Positions 4,568 to 61,035 of a stretch of DNA of 64,000 nucleotides are shown piece by piece. Location: NCBI GenBank assembly GCA_963814395.1, contig CAWFCS010000004.1, forward strand, positions 20,862 through 84,861, read 5' to 3'. Under the pieces are notes generated by a model. The model made no database searches. It was not told where the DNA came from and was given only the letters and a program-made list of their open reading frames with translations. Source of the stretch: an uncultured Acidobacteriota bacterium (GTDB taxonomy: Bacteria > Acidobacteriota > Vicinamibacteria > Vicinamibacterales > UBA2999). The translations under genes and the position numbers were made by a program. How positions within the stretch are numbered: position 1 is the stretch's first letter; the number at the start of each line of letters is the position of its first letter.

Positions 4568-5731
4568 GTGAACGAAGACAAGTCCACCCGGTACCACCGC
4601 CGCCGCCGTCGTGCGGACTTCGCGGGCACCGTTCTCGTGGGCGCCTTCCTGTTCGTGATTGCCATCTCAGGGATGGCGGCGGCGTTTCGCAGCGCGGCCG
4701 AATGGCTCACGGCATGGCTGCCCGGCATGCTGGCGCCCGGTGCCAGCATGGCCCTCTTCCTGGCCGGCCTGGTCGCCACCGTGCAGGCCCTCGAGTTGCC
4801 GTTTGCCTGGTATCAGAGCTACTGGCTCGAGCGGCGCTACGGTCTTTCCACGCAGATTCTGGCGCACTGGCTCGCCGATCACGTGAAGGCCGTCACCGTC
4901 AGCAGCGCGGTCATGGTGGCTGGCGTCTGGGCGGTCTACCTCTGCATGCGCTGGTGGCCGTCGGCCTGGTGGCTGGTGGCGGCCACCGCCTTCACGCTCG
5001 CCATGGTAGTGCTGGCGCGGCTGGCGCCCATTCTGCTGCTGCCGGTGTTCTACCGGGTGCGGCCGCTGCGCCGGCCGGGCCTGTCGGAGCGCCTGCTGCG
5101 CCTCGCCGAGCGCGCCGGCGCGCCGGTGATCGGCGTCTACGAGTGGGTGATCGCCGGGCACACGCGCAAGGCCAACGCCGCGCTCGCCGGGATTGGCCGC
5201 TCGCGGCGCATCCTGCTCTCGGACACGATGCTCGATGCCTACTCCGACGAGGAAATCGAGGTGGTGCTGGCACATGAGCTCGCGCACCACGTGCACCACG
5301 ACCTGTGGACCAGCATGTTGCTGCGGACGGCCACCCTGTTCGGCGGCTTCTACGTGGCCGCTGCGACCATCGCGGCCGTCACGCCGTGGCTCGGCCTGCG
5401 GGGACCGGCCGACGTGGCGGGGGCGCCCGTGCTGCTGCTCGTGGCGGGCGCGCTGTCGTTCTTGATGCTGCCCGTGGGCAACGCCCTGTCGCGGGCCCAG
5501 GAACGGCGGGCCGACCAGTACGCCCTGCGCCTCACCGGCAACCCGCACGCCTTCGTCACGGCCATGCGGCGCCTCGGGCAGCAGAACCTCGCCGAGGACC
5601 GCCCGTCGGCGCTGGCCCGCTGGCTGTTCTACTCGCACCCGCCCATGCGCGAACGCATCGCGGCCGCAGAGGCGTGGGGCGGCGTCGCGCCGGCGTTACC
5701 CGCGCATGGCATCATCGCCGGCAAGGAGTGA
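4568..5731 (+). CDS. M48 family zinc metallopeptidase (Ste24/HtpX-like), integral membrane
   Basis: Several hydrophobic N-terminal segments. HEXXH motif LAHELAHHVHHD followed by the downstream E/R-rich M48 region (ERRADQYA). GTG start. Confidence 0.8.
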   Translation: MNEDKSTRYHRRRRRADFAGTVLVGAFLFVIAISGMAAAFRSAAEWLTAWLPGMLAPGASMALFLAGLVATVQALELPFAWYQSYWLERRYGLSTQILAHWLADHVKAVTVSSAVMVAGVWAVYLCMRWWPSAWWLVAATAFTLAMVVLARLAPILLLPVFYRVRPLRRPGLSERLLRLAERAGAPVIGVYEWVIAGHTRKANAALAGIGRSRRILLSDTMLDAYSDEEIEVVLAHELAHHVHHDLWTSMLLRTATLFGGFYVAAATIAAVTPWLGLRGPADVAGAPVLLLVAGALSFLMLPVGNALSRAQERRADQYALRLTGNPHAFVTAMRRLGQQNLAEDRPSALARWLFYSHPPMRERIAAAEAWGGVAPALPAHGIIAGKE

Positions 5732-5735
5732 GCGG

Positions 5736-6662
5736 ATGCACCATTGGCAGCACACGATGTGGATCATGACGCTGGTGGCGGCCGCGGGGGCGGGCATGCC
5801 GGCGGCCGAGGGGCGCAAGCTGAACGTGGCCCATCGCGGCGCCTCGGCCTACGCGCCCGAGCACACGCTCGAGGCCTACGACCTGGCCATCACCCAAGGC
5901 GCCGACTTCGTGGAACAGGATTTGGCGGTCACGAAGGACGGCGTGCTCATCTGCCTGCACGACCCCTCGCTCGAGCGGACGACCGATGTCGAAGAGCGCT
6001 TTCCCGATCGCTCCAGCACGGTCACCGTCGAGGGACGCCCGCGCCGGGTGTGGCTGGCCAACGACTTCACGCTCGCCGAGATCAAGACGCTCGACGCCGG
6101 CTCCTGGTTCGCCGCCAAGTACGCCGGCGCGCGCGTGCCGACCTTCGACGAGGCGGTGGCGCGCATCCGCGGCAAGGCGGGCCTCTACCCTGAGCTGAAG
6201 ACGCCGGAGATCTACGAGGGCCGGAATGTCGACTTCGTGGCGCTGGTCGAGCAGGCGCTCGACCGCCTTGCGCTGCGCGGTGCGAAGGCCGACGCGAAGA
6301 CGCCCGTGATTCTGCAGACGTTCGGCGCCTCCACGGCCCGGGCGCTCGCCGCCCGCCGCATCGGCGTGCCGGTGGTGTTGCTCATTGGCGGCGTGCCGCC
6401 CACGTGGGATCCGCGCGCCGCCGTCGCCGAGTGGAAGGGCGTCGTGGCTGGCTTCGGGCCGGCCAAGGGGATCGTGACGAAGCACCCGGAGTTCGTGCGC
6501 CTGGCTCACGAGGCGGGCCTCACGGTCACGCCCTACACGTTCACGACGAAGACCCCGGCGGAGCAGACCTCGGTGGCCGCCGAGATGGAGCACTTCCTCT
6601 ACATACTCGGGGTGGACGCGGTGTTCACCGACAACCCCGACAAGTTCCCGCGCCGCCCCTAG
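5736..6662 (+). CDS. glycerophosphodiester phosphodiesterase (GlpQ/UgpQ family), secreted
   Basis: GDPD motifs NVAHRGASAYAPEHTLEAY, FVEQDLAVTKDGVLICLHD and YPELK. AAGGAG lies 7 nt before the ATG at 5736. N-terminal signal-like segment. Confidence 0.85.
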   Translation: MHHWQHTMWIMTLVAAAGAGMPAAEGRKLNVAHRGASAYAPEHTLEAYDLAITQGADFVEQDLAVTKDGVLICLHDPSLERTTDVEERFPDRSSTVTVEGRPRRVWLANDFTLAEIKTLDAGSWFAAKYAGARVPTFDEAVARIRGKAGLYPELKTPEIYEGRNVDFVALVEQALDRLALRGAKADAKTPVILQTFGASTARALAARRIGVPVVLLIGGVPPTWDPRAAVAEWKGVVAGFGPAKGIVTKHPEFVRLAHEAGLTVTPYTFTTKTPAEQTSVAAEMEHFLYILGVDAVFTDNPDKFPRRP

Positions 6663-6690
6663 CGCGGACAGCGCCGCATGCCGGCCGAAA

Positions 6691-7075
6691 TCAACGACCG
6701 GTGACCACGAGCGTGCCCTTCATGGTGCGGCACTGGGGGTCGCTCGACAGGCTGCAGTAGGTACTCGAACCGGCCCACCTGGTCGGCGCGGAACTCGAAG
6801 GTGATCACTTCACCGGCGCCGGCGCGCTTCATCACCCGGTAGGCGTCGATCGCGAAGCTGTGCGGCCCGCCCTCGCTGCGCAGGGTGATCGTGACGAGAT
6901 CGTTCTTCGCGACCTCGAGTCGATCGGGGTCGAAGCGCCCGTCCTTGGCCACGACCGTGAACGCCCGCCGGGTCGGCGCCACTTCTTGTGACGTCACTGC
7001 GCCTGACGGGCCCGCCAGGGCGGTCGTGAGGACGGGCAGGGCGGCGAACACGACCGCGAGCAGGCGGAGAGCCAT
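6691..7075 (-). pseudogene. small secreted cupredoxin-like protein, one +1 frameshift near 6760
   Basis: Signal peptide plus a cupredoxin-like body (DLVTITLRSEGGPHSFAID..GEVITFEFRADQVGRFEY). After one extra base at GAGTAC-C-TACTGC the frame continues YCSLSSDPQCRTMKGTLVVTGR to the stop at 6691-6693. The length is 3n+1. Confidence 0.55.
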
Positions 7076-7087
7076 GGAGGGATTGTA

Positions 7088-7264
7088 GGGGGACTGGGGG
7101 CTGGAGGCTAGGGGCTGGGGTGGGTCTCAAGAAAGACGAAGGGCCGGAAGCAAATGCTCCCGGCCCTTCGTTGTGAGTGTCGAACCTGGGTGTCACACCG
7201 TCACCGTGGCGTGCCTTGGTCCCCAGTCCCGAGTCCCTAGTCCCGCCGCGCCCTAAGGCGCGGC
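7088..7264. repeat. composite palindromic intergenic element: G-rich heptamer array, conserved hairpin, C-rich heptamer array, small hairpin
   Basis: 7088-7124 reads GGGGACT GGGGGCT GGAGGCT AGGGGCT GGGGTGG. 7136-7171 is a 12-bp perfect stem (ACGAAGGGCCGG/CCGGCCCTTCGT). 7218-7244 is the complement of GGGACTA GGGACTC GGGACTG GGGACC. 7245-7264 is GCCGCGCC-ctaa-GGCGCGGC. The core matches the element at 58116-58267. Confidence 0.8.
7125..7171 (-). terminator. rho-independent terminator downstream of pnp
   Basis: A 12-bp GC-rich perfect stem at 7136-7147 / 7160-7171. On the minus strand it is followed by CTTTCTT (complement of 7125-7135). Confidence 0.6.
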
Positions 7265-7267
7265 TGA

Positions 7268-9466
<2,199 letters not shown>

Positions 9467-9574
9467 TGGAAACCTCGATGCCGGGGTCACGTTCCCCGGG
9501 CTTGTCGGCGCGACGGCGCGGAGCCTTCGCCTGGTGCGAGAAGCCCCGCCGCCGCCGGTATTGCGGTGTGGTCG

Positions 9575-11892: not shown

Positions 11893-12352
11893 CGGCGGGC
11901 GCCGCCGGAGCGCCGGCGGGGACTGGATCGGACGGGGCCGGATCGGCCGGCAGCGGATCGGATGGAGCCGCGTTCGCCCCGCCGGCCGTCTCACCGCGCG
12001 CGGCATCCGCCTCGTGAATCTCGTGCAGAATCTCTTCTACGCGCTGGTGCGCCGCCAGGCCTTCGTCGTAGTGGAACGCCACCTCGGGCACCCGCCGCAG
12101 CGTGAGCCGCGTGGCCAGCACGTGGCGCACGAAGGGGGCCGCGCGCTGCAGCGCCTTGGTCGTGCGCTTCTTCTCGGCGGCGTCGCCGAACAGCGTCCAG
12201 TAGACGCGCGCGAGCGACAAATCGGGCGAGACCTTGACCCGGCTGACGGTCACGAGTCCCACGCCCGGGTCGGCGATGTCGGTGGCCAGGATCTGGCTCA
12301 CCTCTTCGCGCAGTTGTTCCGCGATCCGCTCGATGCGATGGGTGAGGGGCAT
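11870..12352 (-). CDS. rbfA: ribosome-binding factor A
   Basis: RIERIAEQLREEVSQIL..DPGVGLVTVSRVKVSPDLSLARVYWT is typical RbfA. It carries an acidic Pro/Ala-rich C-terminal extension. Confidence 0.9.
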   Translation of the reverse strand: MPLTHRIERIAEQLREEVSQILATDIADPGVGLVTVSRVKVSPDLSLARVYWTLFGDAAEKKRTTKALQRAAPFVRHVLATRLTLRRVPEVAFHYDEGLAAHQRVEEILHEIHEADAARGETAGGANAAPSDPLPADPAPSDPVPAGAPAAPADDADPAR

Positions 12353-12361
12353 GTCTCTATT

Positions 12362-12386
12362 CTAGGGGCTAGGGCTGGTCCCCAGC
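12362..12386. repeat. short heptamer-type tract (two units) with a mini hairpin between infB and rbfA
   Basis: The plus strand reads CTAGGGGCTAGGGCTGGTCCCCAGC. It holds two CTAG-containing units and a GCTGG-tcc-CCAGC hairpin. The C-rich version is on the mRNA-sense (minus) strand. Confidence 0.4.
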
Positions 12387-12418
12387 ACTCCGGCGACGTG
12401 CCCGTGTCGGCAGCGAGC

Positions 12419-17155: not shown

Positions 17156-17204
17156 TGGATTTCCCAGATCAGCACCGGACCCTTGAGTTTAGCATCCTGC
17201 TGGC

Positions 17205-18687
17205 TTACAGGTCCAGGGGCCTAGCGACCAGATCGTAGCCGCTGGGCCCCGACGATTTCCACGTCGAGGAACTGGCCGGGCCGCAAGACCGCCGGATCGG
17301 CCTCGGTCAGGAAGACCTGCGGGTCGATTTCGGGCGCCTGCCCTGAGAGCCGGCCGGTGAAGACCCACTCGTGTTCCGGGGACGGGCCGTCGACGACCAG
17401 ACGCGCACGGGCGCCGACGCGGGCCTTCTGGCGGGCGGCGACCAGCTTCTTCTGCGGTGGCCATCACCTTGCGCTGGCGGCGCGCCTTCTCCGCGGCGGG
17501 CACGTCGTCGGCCAGGTCGAAGGCCGAGGTGTCTTCCTCGTGGCTGTAGGTGAAGACGCCGACGTGGTCGAAGCCCACCGCCGTGATGAAGGCCAGCAGT
17601 TCCTGCACGTCGGCCTCGGTCTCGCCCGGGAAGCCGACGATGAAGGTGGTGCGCAGCGTGACGTCGGGCATCTTCGCCCGGATGTTGCCGAGCAGCCGCT
17701 CGTACGAGGCGCGCGTGCCCGGACGTTTCATGCGCTTCAGCACCGCGTCGGAGGCGTGCTGCAACGGCAGATCGATGTAGCGCACGACCTTCGTGCTGGC
17801 GGCGATGGCGTCGATGGTGGCGTCGGTGATGGTGGTGGGATAGAGATAGAGCAACCGCACCCATTCGATGCCGTCCACGCCGTCGAGCGCCCGGATCAAA
17901 CGCGGCAGGGCATCGCGCTCCTTGCGGTCGATGCCGTAGAAGGTGGTGTCCTGCGAGACCAGCAGCAGTTCCTTGACGCCTCTGGCGGCGAGCATGTGCG
18001 CCTCGTCGACCACCGACTCGATGGTGCGGCTGCGGTAGTGACCGCGCATCTTGGGGATCACGCAGAACGCGCACTTGTAGTCGCAGCCCTCGGCGATCTT
18101 GACGTAGGCGTAGTGGCCGGGGGTGGCCAGACGGCGTGGCGTGGTGGCGTCGTAGAGATAGGTGGGGAGATCCAGGCCGAAGGCAGGGACGAGGGACTGG
18201 GGACTGGGGACTGGGGCGGACTGTCCCGCTGCGGACGCTGTGGCGTGCTCAGCTGTCCAGGAGCACCATCGCTGCGCTCGGCGCTTTCGGATCGCGCTTG
18301 TAGAAGGTCAGGGGCGAGGCGCCGGCTGGCGCGCGCAGCGGTCGAGCCGGGCTGGATGGCCTCGAGGATGTTGGGCACGTCGCCGGTGCCGAGCAGGGCA
18401 TCGATCTCGGGGATTTCCTGCTGCAGTGTGTCGCGGTAGCGCTCGGCCAGGCAGCCGGTGACCACCAGGCGTCCGCCAGTGGCCTTCTTGCGCTCCGCCA
18501 TCTCGAGAATCGTGTCGATCGACTCCTGCTTGGCGCGGTCGATGAAGGCGCAGGTGTTCACGATCACCACGTCGGCGCCGTCGGCGTCGGTCGTGATCTC
18601 GTGCCCGGCCTGCTCGGCCATGCCCAACATCACCTCGGAATCGACGAGGTTCTTGGGGCAGCCGAGGGAGACGAAGCCGATCTTCAC
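17205..18687 (-). pseudogene. rimO: ribosomal protein S12 methylthiotransferase RimO, four +1 frameshifts, with a heptamer array inside the interdomain linker
   Basis: N-terminal MTTase domain [30 protein letters not shown]. Radical-SAM core [28 protein letters not shown]-like end QKKLVAARQ..LVVDGPSPEHEWVFTGRLSGQAPEIDP..GYDLVARPLDL then stop. Breaks sit near 17241 and 17457, plus two within 18255-18365. Length is 3n+1. Confidence 0.85.
18185..18219. repeat. heptamer array inside the rimO coding sequence
   Basis: Plus strand reads GGGACGA GGGACTG GGGACTG GGGACTG GGGCGGA. The sense (minus) strand is C-rich. In the frame that continues into the radical-SAM core it reads [26 protein letters not shown]. 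It contains no CTAG. Confidence 0.85.
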
Positions 18688-18691
18688 GGCA

Positions 18692-18719
18692 GGGACCAGG
18701 GACTGGGGACCGGGGACCA
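18692..18719. repeat. heptamer array 5 nt upstream of the rimO start codon
   Basis: Plus strand reads GGGACCA GGGACTG GGGACCG GGGACCA. Two GCTAGC palindromes at 18742-18747 and 18756-18761, 8 nt apart, follow it. Confidence 0.8.
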
Positions 18720-18837
18720 GACCCCAAGGACGCGGCGGGAGGCTAGCGGTTGGCTGCTAGCGGCGCAAGACATCCCAATACTGTACACCCCCACGGCCGC
18801 CCGTGCCTGTCGTGCTATACATGGCGCGCTCGTTGCC

Positions 18838-31348: not shown

Positions 31349-33481
31349 CTAGCGCTGGCGTTCGATGGCCGGGCCGTAGAGGCGGCGCACGTACTCCTTC
31401 AGCATCCGGCTGGTGGAGAAGCGGGGGATGTTGGTGCGCATGGCTTCACGCACGACCTTCATCCAGGCGGTCGGCACGCCGGCCGCGTCCCGGTCGTAGA
31501 AGGCGGGCACGATGTTGCCCTCGAGCAGGGCATAGAGGGCCTCCGCGTCGGCCGTGTCAGCGGCGTCGGGGTTGGCGTCGGCGGCGCGTCCGTCGATCAA
31601 CCAGCCGTTGTCGCCGGTGTAGCCCTCGGCCCACCAGCCGTCGCCGATGCTCAGGTGAGGCACGCCGTTGATCGACGCCTTCATGCCGCTCGTGCCGCTG
31701 GCCTCGAGGGGTTTGCGGGGGTTGTTCAGCCACACGTCGCAGCCCTGCACGAGCAAGTGCGCGACGTGCAGGTCGTAGTCGTCGATGAAGGCGACGCGGC
31801 CGCCAAAGATGGGGTCGAGCGCGCGCCGGAAGACGCGCTGCATATGGTGCTTGGCCGGGTCGTCGGCGGGATGCGCCTTCCCGGCGAAGACGATCTGCAC
31901 CGGGCGGCCCGGGGCATTCAGCAGCCGGGCCAGACGCTCGGCGTCGTGGAAGATCAGCTCCGGGCGCTTGTAGGCGGCGAAGCGGCGCGCGTAGCCGATG
32001 GTGAGCGCGTCGGGGTCGAGCATCGACCCGTGGGTGAGGATGCGCGACGGGGCGACGCGTTCCACCGTCCACCGCTGCCGCGCGCGCTCGCGGATGAAGC
32101 CGAAGAGGTGCGCGCGCAGCGTGAGACGCGCCTGCCAGAGGTCGGCGTCGGGGATGGCGTCGAAGCGGCGCCACACCTCCGGGTCGTCGACGCGCTGGAT
32201 CCAGTCGTCGCCGAGGTGGGTGGTGAGCAGCTCGCGCACGTCGGCGGCCACCCACGTGGGCACGTGCACGCCGTTGGTGATGGCCTGCACCGGCACGCCG
32301 TCGACCGGACGGTCGGGCCACATCGGCTGCCACATCTCACGGGTCACGTGTCCGTGCAGTTCACTGACCGCGTTGATACCGCCGGCGGCGCGCATGGCGA
32401 GCGCCGTCATGTTGAACTGCGACCCGTGGCCGCTATCGTGCTCGCCGAGCGCGAGGAAGCGCGGGCGATGCGGTCCGAGTTCACCCCAGCAGCCGGCCAG
32501 GTGCTTCTCGACCAGTTGGTAGGGGAACGCGTCGTGGCCCGCGGGCACGGGCGTGTGCGTCGTGAACACCGTGCTCTTGCGCACGGCCTCGAGCGCCTCG
32601 TCGAACGAGTGGCCCTGCTCGATGAACTCACGGATGCGCTGCAGCACGACGAACGCGGCATGGCCTTCGTTCAGGTGCCACACCGCCGGTTCGATGCCCA
32701 TGGCGCGCAACACGCGCACGCCGCCGATCCCGAGAATCACTTCCTGCTGGATGCGGGTCTCGCGGTCGCCTCCGTACAACCGCGCCGACAGTTCGCGGTC
32801 CCAGGGCGCGTTCTCTTCGAGATCGGTGTCGAGCAGGTAGAGGCGCACGTGGCCGACCCGCACGCGCCAGACCGCGGCCAGCACGGTGCGGTCGCCGAGC
32901 GGCACCGCCGTGATGCACGGCTTGCCGTCGGGCGTGATCGCGGTCTCGATCGGGGCGTCGGCCCAATTGATGCGTTCGTAGTGTTCCTGCTGCCAGCCGT
33001 CGTTCGAGACGCGCTGGTGGAAGTAGCCCTGCGGGTACATGAAGCCGATGCCCACGAGCGGCACGCCCAGGTCGCTGGCTTCCTTGCAGTGGTCGCCGGC
33101 CAGCACGCCCAGCCCCCCCGCGTAGATGGGCAGCGACTGATGGAGCGCGAACTCGGCCGAGAAGTAGGCGATGACCTTGCCCTGCAGGTCGGGGCCGTCG
33201 CTCGCGAACCACGAGCGCTCGGGCGCGCGGGCGGCGTCGAGTCCGATCAGAGCGGCGTCATAGAGGCGCAGGAACTCAGGGTCGGCAGCCGCCCGCTGCA
33301 GCACGTCGGCACCGAGGGTGCGCAGCATGCGTGCCGGGTTGTGCGCAGTGGTGCGCCACACGCCGAGATCGAGGCGCCGGAACAGCGCCCGGGCGCCGGG
33401 TTGCCAGCTCCACCAGATGTCGGTGGCGAGTTCGCCGAGGCGGTCGATGCGGGCGGGAAACGGGATGTGGAAGCGTTCCAT
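31349..33481 (-). CDS. glgP: alpha-glucan phosphorylase (GT35, maltodextrin/glycogen phosphorylase family)
   Basis: 710 aa with YFSAEFALHQSLPIYAGGLGVLAGDHCKEASDLGVPLVG and EASGTSGMKASINGVPHLSIGDGWW (PLP-lysine region). Confidence 0.9.
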   Translation of the reverse strand: MERFHIPFPARIDRLGELATDIWWSWQPGARALFRRLDLGVWRTTAHNPARMLRTLGADVLQRAAADPEFLRLYDAALIGLDAARAPERSWFASDGPDLQGKVIAYFSAEFALHQSLPIYAGGLGVLAGDHCKEASDLGVPLVGIGFMYPQGYFHQRVSNDGWQQEHYERINWADAPIETAITPDGKPCITAVPLGDRTVLAAVWRVRVGHVRLYLLDTDLEENAPWDRELSARLYGGDRETRIQQEVILGIGGVRVLRAMGIEPAVWHLNEGHAAFVVLQRIREFIEQGHSFDEALEAVRKSTVFTTHTPVPAGHDAFPYQLVEKHLAGCWGELGPHRPRFLALGEHDSGHGSQFNMTALAMRAAGGINAVSELHGHVTREMWQPMWPDRPVDGVPVQAITNGVHVPTWVAADVRELLTTHLGDDWIQRVDDPEVWRRFDAIPDADLWQARLTLRAHLFGFIRERARQRWTVERVAPSRILTHGSMLDPDALTIGYARRFAAYKRPELIFHDAERLARLLNAPGRPVQIVFAGKAHPADDPAKHHMQRVFRRALDPIFGGRVAFIDDYDLHVAHLLVQGCDVWLNNPRKPLEASGTSGMKASINGVPHLSIGDGWWAEGYTGDNGWLIDGRAADANPDAADTADAEALYALLEGNIVPAFYDRDAAGVPTAWMKVVREAMRTNIPRFSTSRMLKEYVRRLYGPAIERQR

Positions 33482-33491
33482 AGATCAGGCT

Positions 33492-33531
33492 GGGACTAGG
33501 GACTAGGGACTGGGGACTAGGGACTAGGGAC
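33492..33531. repeat. heptamer tandem array (5.7 units) between the dehydratase gene and glgP
   Basis: Plus strand reads GGGACTA GGGACTA GGGACTG GGGACTA GGGACTA GGGAC. The TAG stop of the upstream gene (33524-33526) lies in unit 5. The array ends 10 nt before the glgP ATG. Confidence 0.9.
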
Positions 33532-34507
33532 GCGGGCTCGCCGGGCAGGCGCCCACGAGTGTCGCGAATCTGGAGAGGTCGATGTTGCCGCCGGACACGA
33601 TGGCCACGACCTGGCCGGGTCCGGCGCGACCGGACAGCGCAGCGGCCACGGCACAGGCCGCGGCGCCTTCGATGATGACGTGCGCGCGCTCGGCGGTGAG
33701 CTTCATGGCCGCGGCGGCGTCGTCGAGCGTGACCACGAGCGAGCCGGCAATCGCGCCGTGCAGCAGCGGCCACATCGACGGGAGCACCGAACGCCCGCCG
33801 GCGCCGTCGACGAACGACGTGCGCCACGCCTCGAACCGCTGCGGCGATCCGGCGGCCAGCGAGAGCGCCAGCGGCGACGCGGTTTCCGGTTCGGCGGCCA
33901 CGACGCGCACGTCGGGACGCCGGGCGTTCATGACGGCAGCGATGCCGGCCAGCAGGCCACCCCCGCCGATGGCGGCGACGACCGTGGAGACGCCGGGCAG
34001 GTCGTCGAGAATCTCGAGGCCAGCCGTGGCGTTACCGGCGATGAAGGCGTCGTCGTCGAACGGGTGCACGAAGTAGCCGTGCATGCGCTCCGAGGCGCGC
34101 GTTTCCACCGTCTTCCAGCACTCGTCGTAGGTGGCGCGCACGATCGTGGCGCCGAGCCGCTCGATCGCCCGCACCTTCGTCTCGGGCGCCGTGTCCATGA
34201 CCATCACGGAGCAGGGGGCGCCCACGGACCGCGCCGCGAAGGCCACGCCCTGCCCGGCGTTGCCCGCGCTCACCGTCCACACGCCGTCCTGCAGGTCGCG
34301 CGGACCGAGCTGGCGCACGGCATTGAAGGCCCCGCGCAGCTTGAACGATCCGATGGGCTGCAGGCACTCGAGCTTGAGGAAGACCTCGACCGGCTCGCCT
34401 TCAGGGGTCCGCACCGGCACGTCGAGCCGCACGAGCGGGGTGCGCACGGCCGCCGCATAGATGGCCGCGGCTGCGTCTTCTACCGCGCTGATGGGAATGT
34501 GCCGCAT
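33524..34507 (-). CDS. PLP-dependent threonine/serine dehydratase family enzyme
   Basis: LKLECLQPIGSFKLRGAFN holds the PLP-lysine motif. SAGNAGQGVAFAA and GGGGLLAGIA form the glycine-rich phosphate loop. Start taken at MRHIPISAV. Confidence 0.8.
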   Translation of the reverse strand: MRHIPISAVEDAAAAIYAAAVRTPLVRLDVPVRTPEGEPVEVFLKLECLQPIGSFKLRGAFNAVRQLGPRDLQDGVWTVSAGNAGQGVAFAARSVGAPCSVMVMDTAPETKVRAIERLGATIVRATYDECWKTVETRASERMHGYFVHPFDDDAFIAGNATAGLEILDDLPGVSTVVAAIGGGGLLAGIAAVMNARRPDVRVVAAEPETASPLALSLAAGSPQRFEAWRTSFVDGAGGRSVLPSMWPLLHGAIAGSLVVTLDDAAAAMKLTAERAHVIIEGAAACAVAAALSGRAGPGQVVAIVSGGNIDLSRFATLVGACPASPRP

Positions 34508-34589
34508 CGTGACGACCGCAGATCGTATCACGCCGTCCCGCGCATCGCTGGCGCGGCCGCGCGTAGAATGCTCGTGCCTGGAGGCCGAC

Positions 34590-35758
34590 ATGACGAGCGC
34601 GAATGCGAAGAGACTGCTGCTGTTGTGTGCCTTGAGCACAACGCTCGTGTGGAGCGCCGCGCCGCTGGCGCAGCCGGCCGCTGCGCGTCCGCGCGCGCGT
34701 GAGCTGGGGCTCGCGCCAGGGGTGTTTGCGCCGGGGCCGGGCAACGCCATCACCGACGTGGACGGCGTGCGCGTGGGTCACGTCACGCTCACGACCGGCG
34801 ACGCGGTTCGCACCGGCGTCACCGCCGTCCTGCCGCATCCCGGCAATCTGTTCCAGCAGAAGGTGGCGGGCGCGGTGTTCGTCGGCAACGCCTTCGGCAA
34901 ACTGGCCGGTTCCACTCAGGTGGACGAACTCGGCACGATCGAGTCGCCGATCGTGCTCACCAACACCCTGGCGGTAGGCGCCGGCGTGGAAGGCGTGGTG
35001 CGGTGGACGCTGGCGCAGCCCGGCAACGCCGAGCGTGCGCTCGGTGAACGCGCTGGTCGGCGAAACCAACGACGGCGGCCTGCAACGACATCCGCGGTCT
35101 GCACGTGCGGCCTGAGCACGTGCTGCAGGCCATCGCCGCCGCGCGCGGCGGCGCCGTGGAGGAGGGCAGCGTGGGCGCGGGCACCGGCACACAGGCGTTC
35201 GGCTGGAAGGGCGGCATCGGCACGTCGTCCCGCCGCCTGCCCGCGACCTACGGCGGCTTCACGGTGGGCGTGCTCGTGCAGAGCAACTTCGGCGGCGTGC
35301 TCACCATGGGGGGCGCGCCCGTGGGCAAGGAACTCGGCCGCTACAGCTACGCGCCGGCCGGGCGCGGCGATGCCGGCGACGGCTCGTGCATGATCGTCGT
35401 GGCCACCGACGCGCCGCTCGACGCCCGCGACCTGAAGCGCCTCGCTGCGCGGGCCGTGTTCGGCCTGGCGCGCACCGGGTCGTCGTTCAGCAACGGCAGC
35501 GGCGACTTCGCCATTGCGTTCACGACCCATCTGTCGCAGCGGGTGGCGTTCGGCGCGGCCGCGCCGGTGACGCGCACGGCGCTGCCCACCGACGGCGTGT
35601 CGCCGCTCTTCCAGGCGGCGCTCGAGGCCACCGAAGAAGCGGTCTACAACTCGCTGCTGCGCGCCACCACGGTCACCGGCAACGGCACGACGACCGAGGC
35701 GCTGCCGATCGAGCGCGTGCGCGAGATTCTGCGCAAGTACAACGCCGGCAGTCGCTGA
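34590..35758 (+). pseudogene. DmpA/peptidase S58 (P1) family aminopeptidase, two +1 frameshifts near 35040 and 35083
   Basis: A signal peptide is followed by NAITDVDGVRVGHVTL..RTGVTAVLP. After the breaks the sequence continues SVNALVGETNDGGL then NDIRGLHVRPEHV..GSVGAGTGTQAFGWKGGIGTSS (self-processing nucleophile region). Length is 3n+2. Confidence 0.8.
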
Positions 35759-36924: not shown

Positions 36925-37011
36925 GCGGAAGTGGCGGAATTGGCAGACGCGCTAGCCTCAGGAGCTAGTCCGGGCAACCGGGTGAAGGTTCAAATCCTTT
37001 CTTCCGCACCA
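36925..37011 (+). tRNA. tRNA-Leu (anticodon CAG), class II with a long variable arm, CCA encoded
   Basis: Acceptor stem GCGGAAG/CTTCCGC. Anticodon stem CTAGC/GCTAG with loop CTCAGGA. Variable stem-loop CCGGGCAACCGGG. T arm GAAGGTTCAAATCCTTT. Terminal ACCA. Confidence 0.93.
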
Positions 37012-56430: not shown

Positions 56431-58080
56431 ATGAACAAGGAAATGATCATCTCGACCAATGGCCACGAAACCCGCGTGGCCATTCTCGAGGACGACCTGC
56501 TCGCCGAGGTGTTCATCGAGCGCGAGCGCAATCGCGGCGTGGTCGGCAACGTCTACAAGGGCCGGGTCTCGAAGGTGCTGCCCGGCATGCAGTCGGCGTT
56601 CGTCGACATCGGCCTCGAGCGCGACGGCTTCCTCTACGTGTCGGACGTGGTCAACACGATGGAGGAGTTCGAGCGCCTGAGCGGCGACGACGACGACGAG
56701 GAGACGCCGGCGGTGGCCGCCGAGTCGGCCATCGGCAGCGGCGCGGCCGACGTGGCGGCGGCGAGCGCGCCGGCGCCGTCGGGCGGACAGAGCGGCGGCC
56801 GGGGCCGTGGCGGGCGCGGCGGGCGCGGCGGCGAGCGCGACAAGAACGCGCCCGAGCCGAAGATCGAAGACCTGGTCAAGGAAGGCCAGGACATCATCGT
56901 GCAGGTGGCCAAGGAGCCGCTCGGCACCAAGGGCGCGCGCCTCACCTCGCACGTCACGATGCCCGGCCGCTTCCTGGTGTTCATGCCCACGGTGGACCAC
57001 GTCGGCGTGTCGCGCAAGATCGCGACGCGCGAGGAACGCAACCGGCTGCGCGGCATCGTCAAGGAGTTCCGCGACCAGCACCACTTCGGCGGCGGCGTGA
57101 TCATCCGCACCGCGGCCGAGGGCCGGCCCAAGGAAGACATCGTCTCGGACCTGCAGTACTTCCACCGCGTGTGGACCGAGATGCGTCACAAGTCCGAGAC
57201 CAGCCGCGCGCCGGCCACGGTGTTCCGCGAAGCCAGTCTCGTGGCCAAGCTGCTGCGCGACCTGCTGACCGACGACTACATCGCGATCCGCATCGACGAC
57301 CCGCGCGAACACGCGCGCATCATCGAGCTGCTCAACCGCATCATGCCGGCGATGTCGCCGCGGGTGCGGCTGCACGACAAGCCGTATCCGATCTTCGAGG
57401 AATACGGCGTGCAGGCCGAGCTCGACAAGGCGCTCAAGAGCAAGGTGTGGCTGAAGTCGGGCGGCTCGATCGTGATCAACCAGACCGAGGCGCTGGTCGC
57501 CATCGACGTGAACACCGGCCGCTACGTGGGCAAGAAGACCGCCGGCCGGCTCGAGGACACGATCATCAAGACCAACCTCGAGGCGGCCAAGGAGATCGTG
57601 CGGCAGATGCGCCTGCGCGACCTGGGCGGCATCATCGTGCTCGACTTCATCGACATGGAAGAGAAGAAGAACCGGCAGAAGGTCTTCCAGACGGTGGAGC
57701 ACGAGCTGCGGCGCGACCGCTCGCCGTCAAAGGCGCTGCAGGTCTCGGACTTCGGCCTGGTGATCGTGACGCGCAAGCGCGTCAAGCAGAGCCTCGAGCG
57801 CACCCTCACCGAGCCGTGCCCGTATTGCTCCGGGATCGGCACCATCAAGTCGAGCTCGACGGTGTGCTACGAGATTCTCACCGAGGTGAAGAAGGTGGGA
57901 CCGGACCTGGATGGCCTGGGCGTGCTGCTGCGGGTCAACCCCGACATCGCCCGCGCGCTCAAGGACGAAGAGCGCGGCGTGCTGCGCGACTTGAAGCAGA
58001 TGCTCGGCAAGGACGTGATCGTGAAGGCCGACGTGCAGCTGCACCACGAGCAGTTCGACGTGATGTCGATCGGCGGGTAG
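56431..58080 (+). CDS. rng: ribonuclease E/G family endoribonuclease (Rng-like)
   Basis: S1 domain GNVYKGRVSKVLPGMQSAFVDIG. Other motifs are KEPLGTKGARLTSHVTMPGRFLVFMP, VAIDVNTG, GGIIVLDFIDM and a Zn-link CPYCSGIG. It carries an acidic plus RGG-rich insertion at about 56653-56865. Confidence 0.9.
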   Translation: MNKEMIISTNGHETRVAILEDDLLAEVFIERERNRGVVGNVYKGRVSKVLPGMQSAFVDIGLERDGFLYVSDVVNTMEEFERLSGDDDDEETPAVAAESAIGSGAADVAAASAPAPSGGQSGGRGRGGRGGRGGERDKNAPEPKIEDLVKEGQDIIVQVAKEPLGTKGARLTSHVTMPGRFLVFMPTVDHVGVSRKIATREERNRLRGIVKEFRDQHHFGGGVIIRTAAEGRPKEDIVSDLQYFHRVWTEMRHKSETSRAPATVFREASLVAKLLRDLLTDDYIAIRIDDPREHARIIELLNRIMPAMSPRVRLHDKPYPIFEEYGVQAELDKALKSKVWLKSGGSIVINQTEALVAIDVNTGRYVGKKTAGRLEDTIIKTNLEAAKEIVRQMRLRDLGGIIVLDFIDMEEKKNRQKVFQTVEHELRRDRSPSKALQVSDFGLVIVTRKRVKQSLERTLTEPCPYCSGIGTIKSSSTVCYEILTEVKKVGPDLDGLGVLLRVNPDIARALKDEERGVLRDLKQMLGKDVIVKADVQLHHEQFDVMSIGG

Positions 58081-58115: not shown

Positions 58116-58267
58116 GGGACTGGGGGCTGGGGGCGAGGGCCTGCCAGAAACGGCGAAGGGCCGGGCGATTCGCCCGGCCCTTCGCTTTGTACGGTGTGGC
58201 GGCTGGACTGGTACGTTACTAGCCCCAGCCCCCAGCCCCCAGCCCCCAGTCCCTAGAACCTAGAACC
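58116..58267. repeat. composite palindromic intergenic element: 19-bp perfect inverted heptamer arrays flanking a 15-bp hairpin
   Basis: GGGACTGGGGGCTGGGGGC at 58116-58134 is the exact reverse complement of 58235-58253. The central hairpin is at 58153-58185. The right array extends at 7-nt period through AGTCCCT AGAACCT AGAACCT (to 58267) and contains the receptor gene's TAG stop. Confidence 0.85.
58153..58190. terminator. bidirectional rho-independent terminator between convergent rng and the TonB-dependent receptor gene
   Basis: Perfect 15-bp stem GCGAAGGGCCGGGCG-att-CGCCCGGCCCTTCGC. It is followed by TTTGT on the plus strand and by CGTTTCT on the minus strand. Confidence 0.7.
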
Positions 58268-61035
58268 TGAAAATCGCCGACACCCGGTAGCGGCGGGGCA
58301 GCTGGAACGAGCCGCGCGCCGTGGCCTTGCCGAAGTTGTCGACGGCCGTCGCGCACGCTGCGGTGGCCGACGTACCGCAGAACGCGGTGTTGTTCGAGAT
58401 GATCTTGGCTTCGCGGTTGGTGACGTTGAACGCCTCGCCCTTGAAGCCGACCTGCGTGCGCGCTGGACCGCGCCAGGTCACTTCGACCGAGCCGTCGACA
58501 TACCATTCGATGCCGTCGACCGGGTCGGAACCGCGTTCGTTGTAGAAGTAGACGGCGGTCGATCCCTGGTTCAGCAGCGTGCCGGGCAGCAGCACGTTGA
58601 CCGAGCGCTGCTTCTCGTAGCGGCGCTTCGAGATCGCTTCTGCCAGGGCGCCCACGCTCAGGTTGATCGGGCCGATCGGCCGCACGTAGGCGCCGTTCAG
58701 TTTGAAGTTGTGGGGCCGGTCGTAGATCGGCCGGCCGTACTTGTTGTCGCCGTTCTGCACCTCGGCGCAGGGAATCACGCCGTTGACCCCCACCGTGGTG
58801 TCGACCGTGGTGCGGCACTGTGCGTCGAGGTAGTCGCCCAGGCTGGTGAAGGTCTGGTCGAAGTGGTTGCCCTCGGTGCGCGAGTAGGTGTAGCTCGCCG
58901 CCGCGTTCCAGTTGTTCGAGAAGCGCTTCTCGAAGGTGGCCTGCACGCCGCGATACTGACGCTCGGCCGCGTCGTAGTTCACGACCTGACGGTTGATCGA
59001 GTTGTCGGCGTTGAAGGTGCGGACGTCGTCGATCAGATCCTTCCAGTCGCGCGTGATGAAGCGCACGCCGGCAGCCAGGCTGCGGCCGAACTGCCGCTGC
59101 ACACCCACCGTGAACTCGTCCAGGTAGGACGGCGTGAGGTCGGCGTTGGGGCGGAAGGTCGAGCCGCCGATGCGCACCTGGTTCTGCAGGGCGTAGGCGC
59201 TGCCGTTCCACGCGTAGTTGTCGTAGTCGGCCTGCTGCGGCACGCCGGCGAAGGCATCCGAGAAGCTCTGGATGATGCCGGCGTAATAGCGGCCGAAACT
59301 GCCGAGCACGATGGTCTTGCCGTCCCCGGTCACGTTGTAGCTGGCCGACACACGCGGCGCGAGCACGGTCGTGTCGACCGTGTCGGCGGCGAGGTCGCTC
59401 GTGCCGACCTGCTTCTCGACGCGTACGCCCGCCTCGACGAAGAGCCGGCTGGTGACGTCGAACTTGTCGCGCAGGTAGAACGCGTAGTTCTTGCCTTCCG
59501 ACGTGGACGCGCCGGAGAGGTAGTCGCGCCGGAACTGCGGCACCAGGGTGCCGGTCGCCTGATTGAACGACTCGGCGATGTAGTACTGCTTGTTCGGGTA
59601 GTCGAACTGCGAACCCGATTCCACCGTCTGGAAGTCGAACCCCGCCTTCACGTTGTGACTACGCGAGCCGAGACTGAAGAACCAGGTGCTGGCCAGGTTG
59701 GCCTGCTGGCGCGGACGATTCGTGAAGCCGTCGAAGGTGGCGCCGTTGTAGTTGCGGTTGTCCGCCTGGGAGAACACCGGGGCATTCGAGCCAATCCGGC
59801 CGGCCTCGAAGGTGGTGACGTCGAGCCGCGAGGTGTAGGTGCCCACCGCTGCTTCCACCGCCCAGTTGTCGCTGAGCACGCCGTTCCACTGCCCGGCCCA
59901 CGAATCCGAGCTCTGGTTCTGCGAGGTCAGGGCTTCCAGTTCGGCCGCGGCCGAGGCCGCCGGCCAGTAGTCGATGACGAAGCCAGTCGTTGGGCGAGCG
60001 GAAGTACTTCACCCAGGCCGAGTGGCCGTCGCTGATCTGCACGGTGGCGCGCACGTTGAGGAAGTTGTTCTCGGTGCTCTGCTGGTAGTTCTCGGGGATC
60101 GGGCCGCTGGTCTGGCGCTGCGGCGTGGTGTTGGTGGCGTACTCGTGCGCGGCGAAGAACCACGCCCGGTCCTTGAGCAGCGGGCCGCCCAGGGTGGTGG
60201 CGTAGACGGGGTTGACCTTGTCGAACTTGGCCCGTTCGAGCGACACGCCTGTCACTTCGCTCTTGGTCGAGTTCTGCTTGTCCCAGTTGTCGTTGATGAC
60301 GATGTATTTGGCCGAGCCCTCGAAGCGGTTGGTGCCCGACTTGGTGATGATGTTCACGATCGCGCCCTGGCCGCGGCCGTATTCGACCGACGCCGCCGAG
60401 GTCGACACCGACACTTCCTGGATGGCTTCGAAGTTGAGGTTCGCGCCGAAGGTGCCGGTCGTCGGGTCGGTGGTGTCGACCGAGTCCATGATGAAGAGGT
60501 TGCTGCTCGTGAGCGCGCCGAGCGCGTTCACGTTGCCCGTGCCCACCACGCCTGGCGTCACGCCGATGAGGTTCTGGTAGCTGCGGCCGACCGGCAGCCG
60601 CTCGAATTCCTCGCGGCGCACGCGCGTGTTGGCGGTCACGTTGGTGAGGTCGACGATCGGCGTCTCGCCGGTGACGGTCACCGAGTCGGTGAGGCCGCCG
60701 ACCTTGAGCGCGAACGGCACGTTCGTGGTCTTCTCGGTCTCGACGAGGTTGTCGGTGAGCCGCAGTGGCGCGAAGCCGGCCAGGTTCGCTTCGACGGTGT
60801 AGTTGCCGATCGACACGGCGGCAAATGCGTAGCGGCCGTTCTCGTCGGTGACCACCGACCGCACGACGCCGCGTTCCTGGCTCGTGAGCGTGACGGTGAC
60901 GCCGGGCAGCACACCGCCGCTGACGTCTTGCACGACGCCCGCGACCGTGCCGGTCTGGGCGGGTTGGGCCCAGGCCATCGGGGCCAGGGCGATGGTCAAC
61001 AAGGCCGCAACCCACACGGATAACAGTCGAGACAT
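58260..61035 (-). pseudogene. TonB-dependent receptor, Oar-like (carboxypeptidase-regulatory-like N-domain), one +1 frameshift near 59982
   Basis: A signal peptide is followed by GTVAGVVQDVSGGVLPGVTVTLT..TDENGRYAF (CarbopepD_reg fold), a plug region, a long beta-barrel and a C-terminal aromatic end (AIFRF). ORFs 59659..61035 and 58260..59879 join across GACTGG-C-TTCGTC. Confidence 0.8.

Follow-up and report, generated by a model that had tools for sequence, protein, structure and literature searches.

Heptamer array at the dehydratase–glgP junction

The window, a 64-kb stretch of DNA, contains two co-directional minus-strand genes that encode a dehydratase-like protein and a glgP-like alpha-glucan phosphorylase. 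They are separated by a gap of 42 nt, which is occupied by a tandem array of heptamers (Table 1). In the dehydratase-like frame the PALP domain begins only at residue 103, so the true start of this gene is probably downstream of 34753. The glgP-like protein begins MERF, an N-terminus common to its homologues, and the nearest glgP genes are those of Acidobacteriota/Vicinamibacterales MAGs.

On the plus (template) strand the array reads (GGGACTA)2 GGGACTG (GGGACTA)2 GGGAC. TRF reports a period of 7, 5.7 copies and 93% matches, with a score of 73 that ranks second among the 110 TRF rows for the window. On the mRNA strand the tract comprises 19 C, 6 G, 10 U and 5 A. The first-pass annotation had described a nearly pure (GGGACTR)x5.7 array in a 42-nt gap, and both the sequence and TRF bear this out. 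It had also recognised a G4 motif on the template strand, where we find six runs of at least three G, with loops of 3–4 nt, that match the G4 regular expression.

The array supplies the stop codon of the upstream gene, as had been proposed; the dehydratase-like frame ends ...ACPASPRP-TAG, the TAG being bases 33526–33524, inside unit 5. The associated expectation, that a change in unit number would alter both the upstream C-terminus and the glgP leader, holds for the length of the leader but fails for the protein. Simulated arrays of 1 to 8 TAGTCCC units all yield ...ACPASPRP*, because the in-frame TAG is the first TAG that the ribosome meets. A role as a three-frame translation stop was rejected, TAG being present in only two of the three sense frames because unit 3 of the array is CAG.

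The glgP ATG follows 10 nt after the array and, in agreement with the earlier annotation, no Shine-Dalgarno (SD) sequence is recognisable; the cores GGAG, GAGG and AGGA are absent from the intervening AGCCUGAUCU, which is homologous to ...CCCGCCUGAU/AUG in relatives. Its lack of an SD does not set glgP apart. An SD core is found at only ∼24% of crudely called starts in this group, in which an SD-core peak exists, and the glgP genes of relatives are likewise without one.

A search of Rfam 15 at gathering score left the array unmatched, the only match in the window being a tRNA. Scans of positions 33000–35200 gave no sigma-70 promoter consensus and no terminator-like site, with no hairpin at the junction, and the glgP leader RNA has a predicted fold whose stability does not exceed that of shuffled sequences (z=+0.47). 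An intrinsic (Rho-independent) terminator is ruled out by this fold score and by the lack of a GC-rich hairpin with a U tract. Terminal repeats and target duplications, as expected of a mobile element of MITE or REP type, are not visible at the site, and the register of the orthologous tracts described below argues for growth of the array in place.

Table 1. Positions of the arrays and associated features in the window.
Feature	Position	Strand	Description
GGGRCYR-family array	7089..7120	-	C-rich in the sense of the cupredoxin gene (6659..7075); 3' arm of inverted pair
GC-rich terminator-like hairpin	7138..7169	-	Between the two arrays downstream of pnp
GGGRCYR-family array	7219..7245	-	G-rich in the sense of pnp (7268..9490); 22 nt past pnp stop; 5' arm of inverted pair
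GGGRCYR-family array	18186..18216	-	Inside rimO, linker between UPF0004 and radical-SAM domains
GGGRCYR-family array	18690..18720	-	C-rich in mRNA sense; 2 nt from rimO GTG start
Alpha-glucan phosphorylase (glgP-like) gene	31349..33481	-	DUF3417 and Phosphorylase domains
Proximal leader	33482..33491	-	10 nt, between array and glgP ATG
Heptamer array, glgP junction	33492..33531	-	mRNA sense GTCCC(TAGTCCC)2 CAGTCCC (TAGTCCC)2; plus (template) strand (GGGACTR)x5.7
TAG stop of PALP gene	33524..33526	-	Within array unit 5; first TAG reached on mRNA
PLP-dependent (PALP) threonine/serine-dehydratase-like gene	33524..34753	-	PALP domain, E 2.5e-65
tRNA gene	36925..37008	+	Only Rfam match in window
GGGRCYR-family array	58116..58134	+	G-rich in the sense of the RNase E/G gene (56431..58080); 35 nt past stop
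GC-rich hairpin	58155..58183	.	Between convergent genes, with an array on either side
GGGRCYR-family array	58223..58268	-	G-rich in the sense of the convergent OMP gene (58260..59879)

Related arrays in the window

The junction array belongs to a dispersed family. The pattern GGGACTRGGGACT, with at most one mismatch, matches the window 16 times against 0.09 expected from shuffles, and the matches fall into seven GGGRCYR-family arrays. Each of the six besides that at the glgP junction lies at a gene end or in a domain linker. The first-pass annotation had read the array as a device specific to this junction; at least seven arrays of the same family in 64 kb, and an order-wide class of intergenic period-7 repeats, speak against that. 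Of the 11 G4 motifs that the window contains, GGGRCYR-family arrays account for six.

The intergenic arrays of the window follow a strand rule (6/6), the C-rich strand being on the mRNA upstream of starts and the G-rich strand downstream of stops, with the side assignment of the glgP-junction array ambiguous in that genes adjoin both of its ends. Four arrays form two inverted pairs, 7089–7120 with 7219–7245 and 58116–58134 with 58223–58268, each of which brackets a GC hairpin; the array at the glgP junction is unpaired. Another stop codon is array-borne, the CCTAGAA tail units of the 58223–58268 array providing the TAG of the OMP gene.

The 192-nt spacer between pnp and the cupredoxin gene (7076–7267, minus strand) has a predicted fold of −100 kcal/mol (z=−6.6 against shuffles). 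In this fold the inverted arrays pair with each other around the terminator hairpin, and a small hairpin (7246–7264) lies immediately 3' of the pnp stop. The array at 7089–7120 is directly 5' of a conserved TACAAT hexamer and the cupredoxin ATG. The hexamer is found 6–7 nt 5' of the ATG in the window (7076–7088, minus strand) and in four relatives (L175–L178, ∼12320–12400). Its sequence suggests the −10 box of a leaderless mRNA; if it is one, the array would lie in the promoter spacer or −35 region, outside the transcript. One of the four relatives, L176, has the TACAAT without the array.

Orthologous junctions in related genomes

Among relatives with glgP identities of 75% or less, dehydratase–glgP synteny is common and the junction is either plain or carries unrelated heptamers. 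Relatives at up to 74%, together with MAFFT pairwise comparison with L001, had pointed to absence of the array from all orthologous junctions. This was refuted by genus-level relatives, which were obtained through protein matches and have 81–91% glgP identity. All eight of them carry a C-rich period-7 tract that ends 7–13 nt before the glgP ATG and aligns in register with the window array (8/8).

The sequence and number of the units differ between these tracts. Set against TAGTCCC x5.7 (93% pure) in the window are GAGCCCC x5.7 in L174, a GAGCCCC/GGGCCCC mixture x4.6 in L170, 3.6 copies in L162 and CTAGCCG x4.7 in L173, while the tracts of L001, L161, L164 and L172 are degenerate. The comparison of unit number across related genomes that the first-pass annotation had suggested thus gives copies from ∼3 to 5.7, with differing unit sequences. 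Units are more alike within an array than between orthologous arrays, the mark of an old SSR homogenised by slippage and not of a recent insertion. In effect, eight relatives have the tract at this site too and the window array is its locally homogenised form, which further argues against a junction-specific device.

Misassembly had also been named as a possible objection. The orthologous tracts are present in independent assemblies (Illumina MEGAHIT-style, JGI and long-read-style contigs), and an assembly artefact is thereby ruled out. In the long-read-style contigs L172, L173, L174 and L178 the genes for aconitase, rimO and nusA/infB are split into fragments; such splitting of conserved genes indicates indel errors, so exact base counts within G or C runs in the arrays of these assemblies are to be read with caution. 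Sequence from the same species was found neither by exact-protein look-up nor by a metagenome scan with the glgP N-terminus (best 71%) nor by protein search (best ∼90–91%).

Outside the tract the spacers are unalignable. They measure 70–132 nt in the relatives, which have their own TGA or TAA stop, so that the 42-nt spacer of the window is 30–90 nt shorter. The array-borne stop and the short spacer are therefore specific to the window lineage, in which spacer has been lost. The spacers of L001, L161, L162, L164, L170, L172 and L174 have a short GC hairpin right after the dehydratase stop and a conserved GaCCGATAc motif, ∼60–80 nt upstream of the glgP ATG. From their sequence and placing, they could belong to a promoter of glgP. 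The 42-nt spacer of the window has neither, which suggests that glgP there relies on read-through from the dehydratase gene, the two genes then being co-transcribed.

The G4 motif is retained in only five of the nine orthologous junctions, whereas C exceeds G on the mRNA strand in all nine. The strong G4 reading offered earlier accordingly stands as regards the presence of a motif in the window, but the motif is weakly conserved at the site.

Several unit variants can coexist in one genome, L177 having GCCCCCA, CTAGCCG, CGGGGCC, CCCGAGC and GGGGACT at different loci. The idea that genome-specific units are homogenised between loci was rejected, since both L177 and L175 bear several variants; it follows that the unit consensus is genus-wide and that homogenisation is local.

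Arrays at rimO and neighbouring loci

Conserved position combined with unit turnover is also seen upstream of rimO, inside rimO and in the pnp–cupredoxin spacer. In rimO (window 17189–18687, minus strand) a heptamer array lies within the coding sequence, and it has the same position in L175 (1150–1181), L177 (893–923) and L178 (906–934). Relatives with an intact RimO (491 and 511 aa) translate the array as a Pro/Ser/Ala-rich stretch; the RimO of L176 (458 aa) is without it. The rimO frame of the window contains at least three frame changes, two just upstream of the array and one in the C-terminal part, and either the gene is a pseudogene or the assembly has indel errors there.

A conserved GGTGTACAGTGGG motif and a TACAGT −10-like hexamer are found 60–90 nt upstream of the rimO GTG, the motif being seen in the window (18721–18800) and upstream of rimO in L175, L177 and L178. 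Their presence implies a 5' UTR of which the last 30 nt are the heptamer array, with no SD. Within the nusA-infB-rbfA-truB-rpsO-pnp cluster, another array of conserved position separates the DUF503 gene from rbfA (L175 7120–7153, L176 7130–7154, L177 7033–7132, L178 7081–7114). Its units vary by genome: GTCCCCG, CCCTGTT, CGGGGCC/CCCGAGC and GTCCCTG.

Period-7 arrays in Vicinamibacterales and beyond

Across 1.1 Mb of Vicinamibacterales (Acidobacteriota) DNA, tandem repeats have a period of 7 far more often than any other. In 674 kb of Acidobacteriota loci together with the window, TRF finds 76 period-7 arrays, of which 58 are noncoding, compared with 32 of period 6 (5 noncoding), 13 of period 8 (8) and 36 of period 9 (12). 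In a further, independent set of metagenome loci (434 kb), period 7 accounts for 66 arrays, and periods 6, 8 and 9 for 8, 11 and 23. At roughly one per 8 kb, period-7 arrays are the dominant non-coding repeat of Vicinamibacterales, and apparently of some Gemmatimonadota as well. They lie close to genes, the median distance to a gene end being 9 nt, and 53% fall in the proximal tenth of their gap against 20% expected (KS p=7e-8).

The units themselves are diverse. Within the order, 63 distinct units occur in 98 arrays, and at least four G3/C3 runs occur in only 7 of 94 noncoding period-7 arrays. A core ACTG/CAGT shared across lineages is unsupported by these 63 units; enrichment of AGCC and CTGA is modest and is confounded by relatedness. 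The strand rule, taken here as the G-rich strand reading away from the nearest gene end, is obeyed 34:10 in genome loci (p=4e-4) but was not replicated in the metagenome loci (16:15); we therefore claim it only for the genome of the window, its genus and the organisms described in the literature.

More distant members of Vicinamibacterales keep syntenic arrays, at ∼8720–8850 in L019, L020 and L031 and at ∼13150–13220 in L021, L022, L024 and L026. These have the same unit in different copy number (GGCTCAG x4.7, x7.1 and x3.6; an ATGGCAG family), and many arrays of these genomes are back-to-back inverted pairs 1–7 nt apart. The unit of the window itself recurs in another phylum, in a Gemmatimonadales MAG (L066), as inverted TAGGGAC/CCCTAGT pairs of 6–7 units at 4913–5053 and 17616–17767, and the first array begins at the TAG stop of the upstream gene. 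This recurrence reflects either convergence or horizontal spread of one heptamer.

Relation to known heptamer repeats

The closest parallel is the class described by Rehm et al. (2015), whose units are GGGAATC in Xanthomonas and GGGGA(C/T)T in Nostoc PCC 7120 (PMC4692102). Those arrays are dispersed and 68–93% intergenic (89–93% in xanthomonads, 68% in Nostoc), lie within ∼50 bp of ORF ends, and have their G-rich strand as the non-coding one ahead of a start and as the coding one past a stop; convergent inverted pairs, frequent in xanthomonads, are scarce in Nostoc, and both length and sequence vary at the same intergenic site between related species (PMC4692102). No function was found for the repeats (PMC4692102). 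The glgP array resembles this class in its tandem 7-nt units with a G3+ tract (93% matches), in being one of 7 dispersed arrays in 64 kb with a non-coding bias and gene-end placement, in the inverted pairs of the window, and in length and sequence variation at orthologous sites; the GGGACTG unit was itself assayed for G4 formation in that study (PMC4692102). It differs in its host, which belongs to Acidobacteriota (Vicinamibacterales) and not to Gammaproteobacteria or Cyanobacteria, and in its main unit, GGGACTA. Further, G tracts can disappear from the orthologous tract (CTAGCCG) and are absent from most period-7 arrays of the order, from which we conclude that G4 potential is not the common denominator. 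As far as features assessable from the letters go, the array agrees with this class, G4 being present here as a motif only, and we regard it as a member of a known heptamer-repeat class in a phylum that is new for the class.

Similar heptamers are said to have been described by Mazel et al. in 1990 as the cyanobacterial STRR, short tandemly repeated repetitive sequences. STRR were defined in heterocystous cyanobacteria, whose GC content is low. STRR1, CCCCAGT, is a rotation of GGGACTG, the unit found in the glgP array and at 18193–18216. The likeness extends to tandem heptamers that are dispersed intergenically and sometimes lie within transcripts. The host here is a member of Vicinamibacterales, however, and we do not assign the array to STRR; common descent is without support.

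TAACTGA repeats, reported by MacGregor (2015) from marine Beggiatoaceae, some Cyanobacteria and Bacteroidetes, occur in 2–6 copies a few nt upstream of starts that lack a canonical ribosome-binding site, and the genes they adjoin span every functional class, housekeeping genes among them (PMC4679880). The glgP array is similarly within a few nt of an SD-less start, but its sense-strand unit is TAGTCCC, not TAACUGA, and inverted pairs are common here, whereas indirect repeats are nearly absent there, with one reported. As summarised in PMC4679880, Mrazek (2007) surveyed long SSRs (LSSR, 5–11 nt), found heptamers to be the most abundant long class in most genomes, and proposed polymerase slippage as their cause. 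The heptanucleotide units of the present arrays likewise are the most abundant and are non-coding; LSSR, as presented in the summaries (PMC4679880, PMC4692102), is however a statistical category and not a defined element, and those summaries do not name Acidobacteriota among the repeat-rich genomes. Our search of the searchable literature found no description of such heptamer repeats in Vicinamibacteria.

Interpretation of the glgP array

These comparisons lead us to a largely passive reading, to which we give a probability of about 0.6: the glgP array would be an expanded, homogenised old SSR that serves mostly as an unstructured leader spacer and not as a sequence-specific switch. A pyrimidine-rich (C-rich, G-poor) period-7 tract would form the last 30–40 nt of the glgP leader throughout the genus-level clade, as one member of the dispersed gene-end heptamer family (GGGRCYR in the genome of the window). 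Replication slippage would alter copy number and homogenise the units within an array, so that each genome comes to have a different unit at the same site. In the lineage of the window the remaining spacer is absent, with the result that the dehydratase frame enters the array and stops at its first TAG. On the mRNA the array, nearly free of structure and poor in G, would hold the SD-less glgP start region single-stranded in a genome of 70% GC, and it would also act as a spacer between the dehydratase and glgP cistrons. If the array is not a sequence-specific switch, a change in copy number would alter the length of the leader only.

Predicted accessibility is consistent with such a role. The unpaired probability predicted from −20 to +13 is 0.50 for 10 array starts, which represent 4 independent sites, against 0.37 for 199 crudely called starts (p=1.6e-4). 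Most likely, then, the array is a passive but tolerated stretch of the glgP leader, perhaps of slight benefit, and probably does not serve glgP as a special switch.

Transcription could instead allow the template strand to form a G-quadruplex, or the non-template strand an i-motif, and such a structure might slow or modulate RNA polymerase between the two genes or recruit G4-binding factors, tuning glgP relative to the dehydratase. The six G3+ tracts with their 3–4-nt loops, and the predominance of GGGRCYR-family arrays among the G4 motifs of the window, invite this explanation, and in vitro (GGGACTG)3GGG and (GGGGACT)n oligonucleotides formed K+-dependent G4s while the C-rich strands formed i-motifs (PMC4692102). 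We nevertheless find it distinctly unlikely. The motif is lost from four of nine junctions, and the CTAGCCG units of L173 lack any C3 run; the noncoding period-7 arrays of the order share the period and the gene-end placement, yet only 7 of 94 have the requisite runs; G4 extrusion should be disfavoured in duplex DNA of 70% GC; and Rehm et al. found no regulatory role (PMC4692102). Alternatively, the repeats could be a periodic platform for a trans-acting RNA- or DNA-binding protein, the arrays together making up a post-transcriptional regulon. The arrays adjoin the SD-less starts of glgP and rimO, the mRNA carries the C-rich strand at each of the 10 array-bearing starts of the genus set, and units at many loci of the genus share one consensus, CNRGYCC. 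Candidates on RNA would include ribosomal protein S1, a cold-shock protein, a CsrA-like protein or a ring-shaped HutP/TRAP-like protein; HutP recognises UAG triplets 4 nt apart, which amounts to a period of 7. Binding of S1, Csp or CsrA was suggested by MacGregor for TAACTGA repeats in the same position (PMC4679880). A sequence-specific binder is, however, hard to reconcile with the differences in unit seen at one site among close relatives (TAGTCCC, GAGCCCC, CTAGCCG) and from locus to locus within a genome (L177), with 63 distinct units among 98 arrays of the order, or with occurrence of the family 3' of stops on the opposite strand, in a coding linker and in what is probably an untranscribed promoter region, and we regard it as distinctly improbable.

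The C-rich, G-poor composition could also make the 40-nt tract a Rho loading (rut-like) site, causing polarity and leaving glgP dependent on translation or read-through. The 19 C against 6 G of the unstructured mRNA tract, the excess of C over G in 9/9 orthologues and the lack of an intrinsic terminator in the 33000–35200 scan would suit such a site. Typical rut sites are longer than 40 nt, however, ribosomes would cover a tract that ends 10 nt from a start codon, and the same family is G-rich RNA after stop codons, all of which makes Rho loading very unlikely. Least of all do we favour a phase-variable contingency locus, in which frequent changes in unit number would switch the neighbouring genes, or grade their expression, among the members of a population; tandem repeats are prone to slippage and copy number does range from ∼3 to 5.7 among relatives, but this reading is extremely unlikely. 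The upstream frame is indifferent to copy number, with an identical C-terminus from 1 to 8 units, and no promoter consensus was found at the junction (33000–35200), so that the array was rejected as a contingency SSR whose unit number shifts frame or promoter spacing. The flanking genes moreover belong to central metabolism, other arrays flank pnp, RNase E/G, rimO and rbfA, and Rehm et al. were likewise negative for their class (PMC4692102).

Two observations are not fully explained by the passive leader-spacer model. The tract has persisted at 81–91% protein identity while the spacer around it diverged, which could reflect selection for a specific function rather than passive persistence, and local slippage by itself leaves the genus-wide CNRGYCC consensus unexplained. 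A dedicated system in place of passive slippage would be either a selected leader element for SD-independent initiation or standby, or machinery that generates or binds heptamers specifically and evolves together with the unit. Such co-evolution would explain the genus-wide consensus, although we think a dedicated system unlikely.

On its own the glgP array matters little, being typical of a repeat class known for ∼35 years. For annotation it carries a warning that such repeats can supply stop codons and even coding linkers, as in rimO, and that spacer length can differ sharply between close relatives. The value of the arrays is comparative, in that nine related uncultured soil acidobacteria show, at single sites, repeats that persist while their units are replaced. 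Through this replacement G-quadruplex potential is dispensable, whereas period 7 and C-richness of the mRNA are kept, which argues against the G4 explanation favoured for the class and directs experiments to the accessibility of the leader or to a periodic binder.
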